IMG/VR virus record: IMGVR_UViG_2671180651_000010
Source of the DNA: a virus
Taxonomy: Duplodnaviria; Heunggongvirae; Uroviricota; Caudoviricetes
DNA: 12,474 bases
Reading direction: 5' to 3' (one strand)
Made by a program: the position numbers. Positions 9,601 to 12,474 of the stretch are shown here, piece after piece. Each line of letters starts with the position of its first letter. Position 1 is the stretch's first letter.

Positions 9601-12474
9601 GGCTATATCCCAGAAATAAGCCTTGTGAGTAATCATCTCTGTTTTCATGTTTATTGCCATAAATATCATTAAGTATTGGTTGAAACTTCCCTGCATCATC
9701 ATTTGCTAATGATAATGCAAGGCTGTTCGCGATAGCTGAACACGTGGTAAATGACAGAGCAATAAAGACGCCAGCGATGACACTTTTTTTCATATGTTAT
9801 TGTCTTCCTTTTTTTTGAATGGTGCGCGTATTTTACATACATGAGTTTGTAATACAAGGTGCGTAATCAATATGATGTTTTATAATTGCGTGAGACAATT
9901 GATTTATTCTTTTTTTATTGCGGTTTTTATTATCTTTTAATGTAACGGTGTTTTTATTAAGTGTGTTTACGTGGTGTTTTATGTTTTTTATAATTTTTAT
10001 TTTATTAAATTTAAATGCATTAGTAATGGCTATTCTATATAGCAATATAAGAACTGTTACAAAAAAAGGGGGGCAATTACAGGTAGTTATGGATGATGAG
10101 TGAAACAGATATTGGAGAACCGGGGAATGAATGATGTCTGAGTCTTATATATCAGAACTCCTTCGCTGTCGCTGGGGGCTCCTGTGCTTATGTCGTTTCC
10201 CCGATTCGGTTTTGAACGATTACCGAATGTTGAAGAATTATGCCAAAATATAGAAAGGATTTACTGCATGAATACCCAATATTTACAGTATGTTCGTGAG
10301 CAACTTATGGCAGCTACTGCTGACTTGAACGGAGCAACGAAAGGCCAGCTCGAAGCCTGGCAGGAGCATGCACAATTTGATACTGGTACATACAAACGAA
10401 AGAAGCCGCGCATTCTGGATGTGGTAACTGGCAAGATGATTACGCTGGATAATACGCCGACTTCCGGTAAGCAGTCGTACGCAAAAGGTTCATCCATTGC
10501 TTTGGTCAGCCCGGTTGAATTCTCAACCTCTTCATGGCGCCGCGCGGTTTTGTCTCTCGATGAACATCAGAAAGCATGGTTGCTTTGGTGTTACAGCGAA
10601 AGCGTTCGATGGGGGCATCAGGTCACCATAACGCAATGGGCATGGAGCGAGTTTAAAGATTTGTTAAGTAACAGAAAAATTGCAGGTAAGACACTGGATC
10701 GCCTGAAGACGTTAATCTGGCTGGCTGCACAGGATGTGAAGAGCGAACTTGCAGGGCGTGAGGCCTATGAATACCAGACACTGGCATCATTGGTGGGAGT
10801 GACAACAAAAAACTGGTCCGAGACATTTACTGAACGCTGGGTTGCAATGAAGCACATTTTTCTACAGCTTGATAGTGATGCTTTATTGCTTGTGACGAGA
10901 ACACGTTCAAAACAAAAGGCAGCATTTTTACAGCAAAATATTGCAAAACTGGATTAAAAGCCATATACTTCATGCAAATTTGGTATGTTGTAAAAAATGT
11001 ATAAACCCGCTGCCGAGTGGGTTTTTTTTATGCCCTGAGTTGTACTTGTACGGTAAACATGCTGGCTGCTATGTAATAGAGTTTTTTTAGCCTGTAACCT
11101 CTTGACGGCATTGAATTGCTTTTGTTATGAGTTGTAAGCCAATGTTATCATCTTGTATTGGGGTGGTTATGAAGGATGGTGCGCTGCTCAGGAGTTCTTC
11201 ACTTTTTATTGCCTACATGGGATGCCTTGGATGGGGGAGTGCTTATTTCTATGGATGGGGTACTTCTTTTTACTACGGCTTCCCATGGTGGATTGTAGGT
11301 GCAGGTGTTGATGATGTTGCCAGAAGTTTATTTTTTGCAGTTATCGTCATTGCTATATTTCTTATCGGTTGGGGTATTGGTGTTGTATTCTTTTTCGCAG
11401 TGAAAAGAAAACATTCTATGCAAGAGCTAAATGTATTTCGCCTTTATTTTGCTGTGGAATTATTGTTTGTGCCGGCAATTATTGAGTTTTCTATATTGAG
11501 ACAGAAGATTCAGGTACCTCTTTTGCTACTGTCAGCAGCGATTGCGCTGGCGGTTACAATTTCGATAAGATCTTATGGGCGATTTTTATCGGTATCATGC
11601 TTCTATGATAAGCCATTTATAAAAAAACATTTTTTTGAGATTGTGATGATTGCTTTTGTGGCATATTTTTGGCTTTTTTCATTTCTGACAGGATATTACA
11701 AACCACAGTTTAAGAAAGAATATGAAATGATTAATTATAATGATGGTTGGTATTATGTTCTTGCTCGTTATGATAATTGTCTGGTTTTGTCTACTTCTTT
11801 CAATGCAGGTAGTAAAAGGTTTGTCATTTATCAATCAGCACAAGATAAGAATCTTCAGGTTGATATTGTAAGGACCAGAATTTAATTGGCTGCATAAATA
11901 ATATTTTAAGTTGCAAGTTGGCTATTCGTAGGAATAGAACCTTAGGCATGCTGAATGCGTTTTCTGAACATTGTTTTATAAACTGTGTCTGCTTGCTGTT
12001 GTGATCCTGCTTTTAGTGATGGTGATGATGGATTTCACCAGCAGGATAATGTTGGTACTGACTGATGGCGCTCTGGTCTGCGGCATTGTGGTATTGCTGT
12101 GGCCGATGATGAAAGAACAGAATGAATAATTCTTGACTTTTTTGTTTACTGTTTATTAAAAAATCAACCGCATGGTGAATCCTCCTTGGAGGGGCTAAAT
12201 GATCGAGTTTTAAGGGCACGTAGCGAGTTCTGTTTGATCATTGCAGAACTTAGCGGGAGGCGCCATGCGTACATCACTAGTGTTATTCCTTTTATCATTT
12301 TCCTTGTGAGTTCTGGCTGCGCATTGCGCAGCCTTTTTTTTATGACCTGCCACTGGCAGATGGTCATCCTGTGATTTGATTCCGCTTCCGGCTTTTTAAC
12401 TCTGTTCCTCTACACGGGAGAAATTCGATGTCGATTAAACATTACGATGTTGTCAGGGCGGCGTCGCCGTCAGA

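Follow-up and report, generated by a model that had tools for sequence, protein, structure and literature searches.

What is encoded between the tciB gene and the gene starting at position 12428 of this phage DNA? Within the window, i.e. the whole stretch of 12,474 nucleotides that was analysed, positions 12133-12341 combine a promoter-like hexamer, two short open reading frames (ORFs) and a terminator, and could be read as a leader, a protein-coding gene or the gene of a small RNA (sRNA). A preliminary description proposed attenuation or an sRNA. The sRNA half of that proposal holds, as 12170-12341 is PasD2, an abundant 172-nt Hfq-associated RNA of EPEC; the attenuation half does not.

Identity of the locus

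The window was 100% identical to OL657226 (phage 434). Alignment revealed that 12170-12341 matches PasD2 of EPEC E2348/69 (172 nt) base for base, and that the PasD2 locus and window positions 12141-12440 are 100% identical and collinear at an offset of 728987, all 172 nt included. In EPEC, PasD2 came to light in Hfq RIL-seq, with Northern blotting as a check (Pearl Mizrahi 2021, PMC8550237); its coordinates are 741157-741328 of NC_011601 (PMC8550237 Table S6). Its estimated 3' end, 741328, maps to 12341.

12170-12341, plus strand: PasD2 small RNA, 172 nt (PMC8550237 Table S6 coordinates, alignment and Rfam STnc100 match)

PasD2 is thus an already known regulatory sRNA of E. coli prophages, of a known kind and with no new regulatory mechanism, and 12133-12341 is very likely its gene together with its promoter. 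It is not an amino-acid-sensing leader controlling the next gene. Table S6 of PMC8550237 cites EcOnc13 as the EHEC homologue of PasD, a name for which our literature search returned nothing. The PasC probe sequence was absent from 434.

According to the annotation of the window, the following genes surround the locus:

8834-9793: lpxR
10268-10957: Q
11971-12129: TciB gene (DUF3927)
from 12428 (ATG): nanS-p, sialate esterase

The same slot, with a DUF3927/TciB gene upstream and the sialate esterase gene nanS-p downstream, holds PasD2 in both 434 and EPEC E2348/69. Q and LpxR lie upstream in >98% of PasD loci, the basis for using synteny to recognize PasD (Zhu et al. 2026), and the window likewise has a DUF3927-esterase/lysis slot with Q and LpxR within 10 kb. 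In phage 2B8, pasD is found directly upstream of an esterase, and the link between PasD and STnc100 was made independently (Zhu et al. 2026); the 2B8 region was 98.3% identical to that of 434. The supplementary file of the Zhu et al. preprint that was searched does not mention OL657226, NC_049952 or LR595859. Positions 10941-11031 of the window form a candidate pair of Q-controlled late promoter and tR'.

Candidate promoter and expression

Two hexamers upstream of the RNA are candidates for a pasD promoter:

12133-12138, plus strand: TTGACT, candidate -35 hexamer of the pasD promoter; read directly, the promoter role being putative
12157-12162, plus strand: TAAAAA, candidate -10 hexamer, 7 nt before the 5' end of the RNA

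The TTGACT hexamer was correctly located in the preliminary description and fits the -35 element of the sRNA's own promoter; it is separated from TAAAAA by 18 nt. A consensus promoter scan did not call this site, since its best -10 (TAAAAA) lacks the final T and is weak with a 4/6 match. TTGACT or TTGATT is kept at the same spacing in PasD-type upstream regions, and in most of 50 distinct upstream contexts the distance between a TAAAA[A/G]-like element and the conserved GCATGGTG start is nearly constant. Judged by sequence, this conserved -10-like element argues for an independent pasD promoter. Transcription would then start at G12170 from a sigma-70 promoter (TTGACT, 18-nt spacer, TAAAAA) and stop at the terminator. 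The published 5' end of PasD2 in EPEC is an estimate from RNA-seq coverage rather than a mapped primary end.

For the identical EPEC sequence, accumulation of a species of ~172 nt has been shown (PMC8550237). In EPEC, pasD2 had a BaseMean of 11017, whereas tciB upstream of it reached 36.7 and nanS-p 102, which favours a separate promoter for pasD2; nanS-p reads amount to ~1% of PasD2 reads. During lytic growth, Q-modified RNA polymerase coming from an upstream late promoter may read through the terminator into nanS-p and the lysis genes.

A pseudoknotted 5' domain shared with STnc100

The 172-nt RNA folded better than its shuffles (z = -3.07). Its 5' ~100 nt form a structured domain, in which a closing helix (P1) encloses a hairpin P2 and a hairpin P4, the loop of the latter being pseudoknotted to the segment that follows P2:

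12170-12177, plus strand: P1 5' strand GCAUGGUG, pairs with CGCCAUGC at 12261-12268 (minimum free energy (MFE) fold, probability 0.998)
12181-12192, plus strand: P2 hairpin CCUC-CUUG-GAGG, which the preliminary description took for a 'GGAGGGG RBS'; aligns to the CCCC...GGGG hairpin of STnc100
12198-12204, plus strand: AAUGAUC, 5' strand of the pseudoknot; complementary to the P4 loop, and includes the start codon of the 4-codon mini-ORF
12225-12251, plus strand: P4 hairpin GAGUUCUG / CAGAACUU, -7.9 kcal/mol, with loop GAUCAUU (12236-12242) forming the pseudoknot
12255-12260, plus strand: GGGAGG, the second 'RBS' of the preliminary description; what is left of the P5 hairpin of STnc100 (CCGGGAGGCACCCGG), of which PasD lacks the 3' half
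12261-12268, plus strand: P1 3' strand CGCCAUGC, holds the AUG (12265-12267) of the 14-codon ORF

At gathering thresholds, Rfam gave no match in the region. In E-value mode, STnc100 (RF02076) matched 12140-12344 over model positions 1-206 of 206 with E 3.5e-7, its 41.4 bits falling short of the gathering score (47). PasD1 gave no match to STnc100 at the gathering threshold either, and relatives in viral contigs scored 77-200 bits. Sub-threshold Rfam matches of SorX, asX2, OmrA-B and GcvB over the terminator were discarded as chance matches driven by the terminator. P1 is the closing helix of the Rfam STnc100 consensus, and P1, P2 and P4 of the STnc100 5' domain are all present in the window. 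The STnc100 P5 hairpin (CCGGG-AGGCA-CCCGG) is incomplete, as in PasD the P1 3' strand comes immediately after GCGGGAGGCG. Based on these sequence and helix comparisons, the 5' domain of PasD is homologous to that of the STnc100 sRNAs.

Relatives were gathered with the conserved 5' pattern because blastn against phage records gave only 434 and 2B8 in full length; about ten unrelated coding-sequence matches were filtered out. Helices were counted per sequence by scripts, since the alignments (MAFFT, script) misregistered the pseudoknot strands and P4 of one variant, and misplaced the PasD P1 3' strand. The pseudoknot was controlled by class and by loop shuffling.

P1 turned out to be almost invariant in sequence: across STnc100 variants we saw no compensatory changes, only a few one-sided C to U changes giving G-U. 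The arms of P4 covary among 49 distinct variants, with compensatory changes in relatives that include GGAUUCAG/CUGAAUUC, GGGUUCGG/CCGAACUC, GGGACGCUG/CAGCGUCUC and AAAUUCAG/CUGAAUUU. The pseudoknot, a feature proposed here and outside the Rfam consensus line, pairs at the same position in four sequence-distinct classes of relatives (AUCAGC/GCUGAU, CUGGUG/CACCGG, AAUGA(U)C/G(A)UCAUU and CUGGCU/AGCCAG). Shuffling of the P4 loop gave p <=0.15 for 25/26 distinct variants (most <=0.07), and p = 0.004 for the pairing of 12198-12204 with 12236-12242 in the window. The local P2 hairpin (-4.7 kcal/mol) has a long-range alternative in the MFE fold, where CCUCCU (12181-12186) pairs with GGGAGG (12255-12260). 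Two small additions are without precedent in the literature that we found: the covariation-supported pseudoknot of the PasD/STnc100 5' domain and the conserved -10-like element.

The proposed leader-peptide attenuator

Could translation of the 4-codon and/or the 14-codon ORF set terminator formation and hence nanS-p expression? The parts named in the preliminary description are in place. GGAGGGG (12188-12194) is followed by the 4-codon ORF ATGATCGAGTTTTAA (12199-12213), and GGGAGG (12255-12260) by the 14-codon ORF MRTSLVLFLLSFSL (12265-12309) with its five Leu codons CTA/TTA/CTT/TTA/TTG; GAGTTCTG has copies starting at 12225 and 12308, with CAGAACT at 12244. Taken by itself, an exact 8-mer direct repeat arose in 32% of dinucleotide shuffles of 12133-12341; combined with a 7-nt reverse complement, it arose in 1.6%. 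The second copy of GAGTTCTG (12308) adjoins and partly overlaps the published seed of PasD, CCUUGUGAG.

That ORFs, Shine-Dalgarno-like motifs and a terminator are all present speaks for such a leader, as do the ribosome footprints on some STnc100 copies in EDL933. In addition, a ribosome reaching the stop codon of the 14-codon ORF (12307-12309) would block the terminator stem because this codon lies 5 nt before it; with a ribosome at this UGA, the terminator formed 0/8 pairs. However, stalling at the Leu codons left the terminator intact, and in folding with a stalled ribosome it persisted in all simulations except those with the ribosome directly on the terminator. The supposed competition between hairpins did not materialize: the alternative hairpin (-5.0 kcal/mol versus -7.9 kcal/mol for the conserved P4) overlaps the terminator stem by one base and had a pairing probability of 0.0. 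The alternative helix (12244-12250 with 12309-12315) and the terminator are compatible, since together they reach -17.7 kcal/mol with a 1-nt overlap.

The reading frames themselves argue against translation-coupled attenuation. In PasD1, a 1-nt insertion shifts the frame of the 14-codon ORF, and STnc100 relatives carry unrelated ORFs after the same AUG. P1 takes up this AUG (probability 0.998), the MFE fold pairs GGGAGG, and the AUG of the 4-codon mini-ORF lies within the pseudoknot helix. The 14-codon ORF shows no cluster of regulatory codons, its five Leu codons being spread over a U-rich stretch. Conserved G-rich helices and the U-rich linker probably gave rise to the mini-ORFs and 'RBS' motifs as by-products. 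Nor did the proposed control of the gene at 12428 find support. The downstream gene is not constant: nanS-p follows PasD2, a holin gene lies about 400 nt from PasD1 and STnc100 copies precede others. In EPEC, nanS-p stands at ~1% of PasD2 reads. As a sialate esterase, nanS-p is moreover unrelated to the supply of Leu or Phe. We therefore consider a leader-peptide attenuator very improbable. Elsewhere in the window, at 10909-11031, there is a sub-threshold Rfam match to Phe_leader.

The annotated coding gene

The 434 record holds no sRNA annotation at PasD2, and a 62-aa CDS is drawn over the same stretch:

12186-12374, plus strand: CDS CPT_434_70, 62 aa, 'putative membrane protein' (OL657226 annotation)

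A protein-coding gene, either CPT_434_70 or one of the minus-strand ORFs, would agree with this CDS, with the 'hypothetical protein' annotated in many RefSeq genomes and with the existence of the ORFs. But CPT_434_70 has a TTG start and contains a strong terminator, its frame is lost through the 1-nt indel that distinguishes PasD1 from PasD2, and none of the three ORFs matches a Pfam or PHROG family. Strand and extent are also annotated differently between genomes, RefSeq E2348/69 having other, minus-strand ORFs. A coding gene is thus very improbable, and CPT_434_70 is most likely spurious. The main value of our analysis is corrective in that the GenBank record of phage 434 shows a 62-aa 'membrane protein' where a well-expressed regulatory RNA lies.

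Seed, terminator and targets

Downstream of the 5' domain, the PasD2 sRNA consists of three parts:

12269-12301, plus strand: U-rich single-stranded linker, un- or weakly paired in folds; source of the Leu/Phe/Ser-rich ORF
12302-12310, plus strand: seed CCUUGUGAG (PMC8550237 Fig. S5 and target-motif supplement); the Northern probe maps here
12315-12341, plus strand: intrinsic terminator with 8-bp stem, 3-nt loop and U8, the PasD2 3' end; -15.9 kcal/mol in isolation, pairing probability 0.998

The intrinsic terminator of the preliminary description, GGCTGCGC-ATT-GCGCAGCC, was confirmed at 12315-12333 with T8 to 12341. Its stem is kept in PasD1, where an A-to-G change turns U-A into U-G. The general architecture of Hfq-binding sRNAs is present, with a U8 tail, the U-rich linker and a seed that is mostly unpaired in folds; by analogy with this architecture, 12269-12301 is probably the Hfq contact region. 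The motif common to PasD targets is CUCACA(G/A)G, the complement of a UGUGAG that immediately precedes the terminator (PMC8550237), and in the window a UGUGAG seed lies directly 5' of the intrinsic terminator. In RIL-seq the seed motif is statistically weak, with MEME E-values of 2.4e03 and 6.5e0 beside PasD1 and PasD2 (PMC8550237 Fig. S5).

PasD2 was recovered on Hfq in chimeras with CUCACA(G/A)G mRNAs, including lpxR of the same prophage (PMC8550237), and would act in trans via its seed on targets bearing CUCACAGG. A likely target site lies within the phage itself:

9622-9631, minus strand: ACUCACAAGG in the lpxR mRNA, 10-nt match to the PasD seed

In EPEC, E2348C_0684 (lpxR) has the identical site and flanks and is listed among the PasD2 RIL-seq targets. 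What ties PasD2 to lpxR is the seed match of 10 nt together with the chimeras already published, and not duplex energy, since the duplex of the PasD tail with lpxR was not exceptional (-23 versus a background mean of -18 kcal/mol). In the literature we found no validation of a PasD target by compensatory mutation. Hfq-dependent stability was reported by Northern blot for the Pas set (PMC8550237 main text), and RNA-seq of an hfq deletion gave log2FC values of +0.55 for pasD2 and -0.18 for pasD1, i.e. no fall (PMC8550237 table). K-12 lysogens of 434, decades in use, would carry pasD2 (and pasA) as in EPEC, which would make 434 a safe and convenient system for studying pathogen-associated sRNAs.

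A possible second role of the 5' domain

PasD2 was also recovered on CsrA, and no chimera in CsrA RIL-seq is more abundant than yjbJ.3UTR-PasD2. In addition to the action of the sRNA in trans, the pseudoknotted 5' domain might act by itself, e.g. as a platform for CsrA or another protein, or as a processing or stability element in the Q-dependent late transcript. Several observations favour a dual role, or one in cis: PasD2 ranks first among the partners in CsrA RIL-seq, RNA-seq shows PasD levels that do not depend on Hfq, and conservation is much stronger in the 5' domain than in the seed/terminator part, the latter being swapped between variants; the pseudoknot covaries, and copies occur as tandem arrays in late regions. 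However, conserved 5' structures can simply shield sRNAs from decay, and the first GGA motif is variable among relatives (GGA, GGU or GGC). We regard this dual role as possible but rather unlikely. More speculative still, the PasD/STnc100 5' domain could be an autonomous module (a protein scaffold, or an element acting in cis within the late transcript) that is recombined with interchangeable promoter and seed-terminator cassettes, and PasD2 in 434 could titrate or guide a global regulator and tune lpxR. If so, PasD2 would tune the phage's own lipid A deacylase gene.

Comparison with known systems

PasD2 of EPEC E2348/69 is the closest known system: all 172 nt, the seed, the terminator and the flanking genes (including Q and lpxR further upstream) are the same as in 434, and the host replicon, a resident prophage versus the free-living laboratory phage 434, is the sole difference. 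PasD1 of EPEC differs from PasD2 by a 1-nt insertion, a few substitutions and a holin gene following it instead of nanS-p.

STnc100 (RF02076, including EcOnc27/sRNA103 downstream of stx2B) and PasD share the 5' end GCAUGGUGAAUCC, P1, P2, P4 and the P4-loop pseudoknot, as well as the GGGAGG element, the -10-like element and the lambdoid late-region position between Q and the lysis genes. In contrast, PasD has a shorter P2 loop, no 3' half of P5, a different variable region and a score below gathering, and most STnc100 tails bear no relation to the seed and 3' tail of PasD.

The leader attenuators of trp, leu, his and pheA resemble 12133-12341 in having a short ORF upstream of an intrinsic terminator and repeats with more than one pairing. 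Unlike these leaders, the locus has no run of regulatory codons, no conserved peptide and no conserved downstream gene; its start codon is sequestered and its alternative helix does not compete with the terminator.

Lambda 6S RNA and StxS of Stx phages are small terminated late-region RNAs of lambdoid phages that are made in lysogens, and in this PasD is alike. Their transcription runs from the Q-controlled late promoter to tR', whereas PasD would have its own promoter ~1.2 kb downstream of 10941-11031.

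Identity and source of the element

Over its final 595 bases the window is 100% identical to Escherichia phage 434 (OL657226.1) and 98.3% identical to phage 2B8. Window positions equal OL657226 record positions minus 31028, and the gene order was taken from the 434 annotation and confirmed with Pfam/PHROG scans:

10268-10957, Q82-like antiterminator gene
11006-11031, terminator after the Q82-like gene
11142-11885, membrane protein gene
11971-12129, TciB/DUF3927 gene
12186-12374, annotated 62-aa 'putative membrane protein' CDS, with a terminator marked inside it
from 12428, nanS-p, SASA-family sialate esterase

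The gene left unnamed in the preliminary description, which starts at 12428, is therefore nanS-p. That description read the region before it as an attenuator-like leader or an sRNA, and the second reading is right. PasD2 is a 172-nt sRNA of EPEC E2348/69 (NC_011601 741157-741328), with a 159-bp gene on one side and an 1851-bp esterase gene on the other; it was probed on Northern blots with the reverse complement of CCTTGTGAGTTCTGGCTGCGCATG, and PasD targets share the motif CUCACA(G/A)G (Pearl Mizrahi et al. 2021, PMC8550237). When both E2348/69 PasD loci were aligned, the PasD2 locus was 100% identical to and collinear with 12141-12440. PasD2 therefore corresponds to 12170-12341, and its published 3' end coincides with the terminator end at 12341. 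Among 5426 complete E. coli genomes, about 680 have a copy that spans at least 80% of the element's length.

Rfam, searched in E-value mode, returned a full-length STnc100 (RF02076) match at 12140-12344 (41.4 bits, E 3.5e-7; gathering score 47), and a common ancestor of PasD and STnc100 was concluded by Zhu, Shabalina and Storz (bioRxiv 2026). The sRNA here has been described before, as PasD2, and is a divergent relative of STnc100. It is unannotated in the phage 434 record, the publication announcing the 434 genome is silent on any sRNA, and we did not see 434 named in the Pas literature examined. A pseudoknot and promoter conservation are our modest additions. The 62-aa CDS and minus-strand ORFs over PasD2 had no family match in Pfam and PHROG scans, and their annotation is inconsistent between genomes.

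Conserved structure of the 5' domain

Relatives sharing the conserved 5' pattern were collected from viral contigs, and filtering left 49 distinct 5' domains. Those tested by Rfam matched STnc100 at 77-200 bits and often lay in tandem and beside tRNA genes. Four helices were recognized:

P1, closing helix, GCAUGGUG with CACCAUGC, common to the relatives
P2, CCCC...GGGG hairpin, common to the relatives
P4, hairpin with covarying arms, GGAUUCAG/CUGAAUUC, GGGUUCGG/CCGAACUC or GGGACGCUG/CAGCGUCUC in relatives and GAGUUCUG/CAGAACUU in PasD
P5, CCGGG-AGGCA-CCCGG, common to the relatives

The segment directly after P2 is complementary to the P4 loop in four sequence-distinct classes. In 25 of the 26 distinct variants tested, no more than 15% of loop shuffles equalled the observed helix length, and in most no more than 7%. 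On this comparative evidence the two segments form a predicted pseudoknot, in PasD between AAUGAUC (12198-12204) and GAUCAUU (12236-12242), which is absent from the Rfam consensus line of STnc100 and not mentioned in the Zhu preprint. In PasD the 3' half of P5 is missing, and GGGAGG may pair with the P2 CCUCCU instead, as in the modelled MFE structure, an alternative to local P2 pairing.

Tails 3' of P1 are unrelated among the relatives, and some join a PasD-type promoter and terminator to an STnc100-type 5' domain. These chimeras (L014, L025, L027, L033 and other loci) carry the promoter TTGATT-18-TAAAAA and a PasD1-type terminator, GGCTGCGCATGGCGCGGCC with U8, while the U-rich tail differs, which suggests modular cassette exchange. 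Separately, tandem STnc100 arrays comprise four copies in L008 (2265-3380), two in L011 (3121-3798) and two in L072 (1363-1843), with tRNA genes nearby in L008 and L011; in each copy observed, the variable region and the matching P4 loop are particular to that copy.

Test of the attenuation model

The model of translation-coupled attenuation drew on features that are all in the sequence: TTGACT (12133-12138), GGAGGGG (12188-12194) before the 4-codon mini-ORF ATGATCGAGTTTTAA (12199-12213), GGGAGG (12255-12260) before the 14-codon ORF14 MRTSLVLFLLSFSL (12265-12309), GAGTTCTG at 12225 and 12308 with CAGAACT at 12244, and the terminator at 12315-12341, which we confirmed. The 172-nt RNA is also more stably folded than its shuffles (z = -3.07), and while the 8-mer repeat alone is common (32% of shuffles), the repeat plus a reverse complement is rare (1.6%).

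However, the supposed ribosome-binding sites are instead the strands of P2 and P5 that are rich in G. The start codon of the mini-ORF falls within the pseudoknot helix and that of ORF14 within P1 (pairing probability 0.998), and the Leu/Phe-rich peptide is a by-product of the U-rich linker. PasD1, the sister copy, has a 1-nt insertion within ORF14 whose shifted frame reads through the terminator, and relatives encode unrelated peptides. The 12225 copy pairs with CAGAACT as the conserved hairpin P4. The second copy takes in the final three bases of the seed CCUUGUGAG (12302-12310) and extends to the first terminator-stem base. The alternative helix (12244-12250 with 12309-12315) shares a single base with the terminator, is weaker than P4 (-5.0 versus -7.9 kcal/mol), coexists with the terminator (-17.7 kcal/mol together) and has a pairing probability of 0.0. 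When ribosome-sized stretches were blocked at start or Leu codons the terminator stayed intact, and only a ribosome on the stop codon abolished it. Nor is the proposed regulated gene conserved, since a holin gene follows PasD1. Given frame, helix, ribosome-block and downstream-gene results, an attenuator at 12133-12341 is therefore highly improbable.

Promoter and expression

A TAAAA[A/G]-like element is placed 6-7 nt 5' of the conserved RNA-start G in most of 50 distinct upstream contexts; in PasD-type copies it is preceded, at a distance of 18 nt, by TTGACT or TTGATT. STnc100 copies with the common upstream type have a TTGAC motif 25 nt away, and this motif is unlikely to be a -35. In viral-contig loci such as L006 and L012, a conserved TCACAATTCAG...GTTGAC(T/A)GTTGTCTG block precedes the -10-like element of STnc100 copies; the 25-nt spacing exceeds what a -35 allows, so the block may bind a regulator. 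The PasD2 -10 is weak and was missed by a consensus promoter scan, so the pasD2 promoter is one that we infer. Published EPEC RNA-seq BaseMean values (pasD2 11017 versus tciB 36.7 and nanS-p 102) argue that pasD2 has a promoter of its own and is efficiently terminated.

Hfq deletion did not reduce pasD2 or pasD1 (log2FC +0.55 and -0.18), versus -2.8 for pasA, -6.8 for pasB and -2.1 for pasC (PMC8550237 Table S2), although the main text of that paper classes all five Pas sRNAs as Hfq-dependent in stability.

Proposed action and the lpxR target

In the lysogen, PasD2 would be transcribed from its own promoter to its own terminator and, on Hfq, its seed would pair with CUCACA(G/A)G sites. During lytic growth, by analogy with general lambdoid biology, Q-modified polymerase would read through the terminator. 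The published PasD2 RIL-seq partners in EPEC include lpxR (E2348C_0684), from the prophage that carries PasD2:

8834-9793 (-), lpxR (lipid A deacylase) moron, between two Q-gene elements
9622-9631 (-), ACUCACAAGG in lpxR mRNA, 10-nt complement of the PasD seed

This site and its flanks, about 165 nt into lpxR, are identical to E2348C_0684; lpxR mRNA also forms chimeras with MgrR in published EPEC RIL-seq. Among CsrA RIL-seq partners PasD2 ranks first in abundance, and its RNA-seq level is not lowered without Hfq. Both observations hint, speculatively, at a separate role for the structured 5' domain.

Surrounding modules

On one side of the lpxR moron is a piece of a lambda-type Q gene, its N-terminal part (8627-8716), and on the other the complete Q82-like gene. 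This layout (8627-10957) looks like a recombination scar and is also present in E2348/69 prophage PP2. Similarity to Stx-phage relatives such as JLK-2012 (12311-12474) starts at the pasD terminator and extends into nanS-p (93%); thus the terminator appears to be a recombination boundary between modules. For most Stx phages the match starts only at 12415. Elsewhere, RF01804 (lambda cIII thermoregulator element) matched at full length at 259-317 (-), at the start of a cIII-like ORF (28-297), with 88.5 bits, and STnc240 sub-threshold at 10964-11033 (+) (28 bits versus a gathering score of 55). Two elements lie just past the Q82-like gene:

10941-10969 (+), candidate late promoter TTGCAA-17-TATACT
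11003-11031 (+), terminator

Their layout resembles a pR'/tR' pair yielding a short leader RNA. The PasC probe sequence had no match in phage 434. Outside the window, phage 434 carries pasA as well: the PasA probe sequence from the literature has an exact match at 7558-7582 of L001, a locus of the 434 record (OL657226 45465-45489), between nanS-p and the holin gene. Phage 434 thus reproduces the EPEC order pasD2-nanS-p-pasA-holin.
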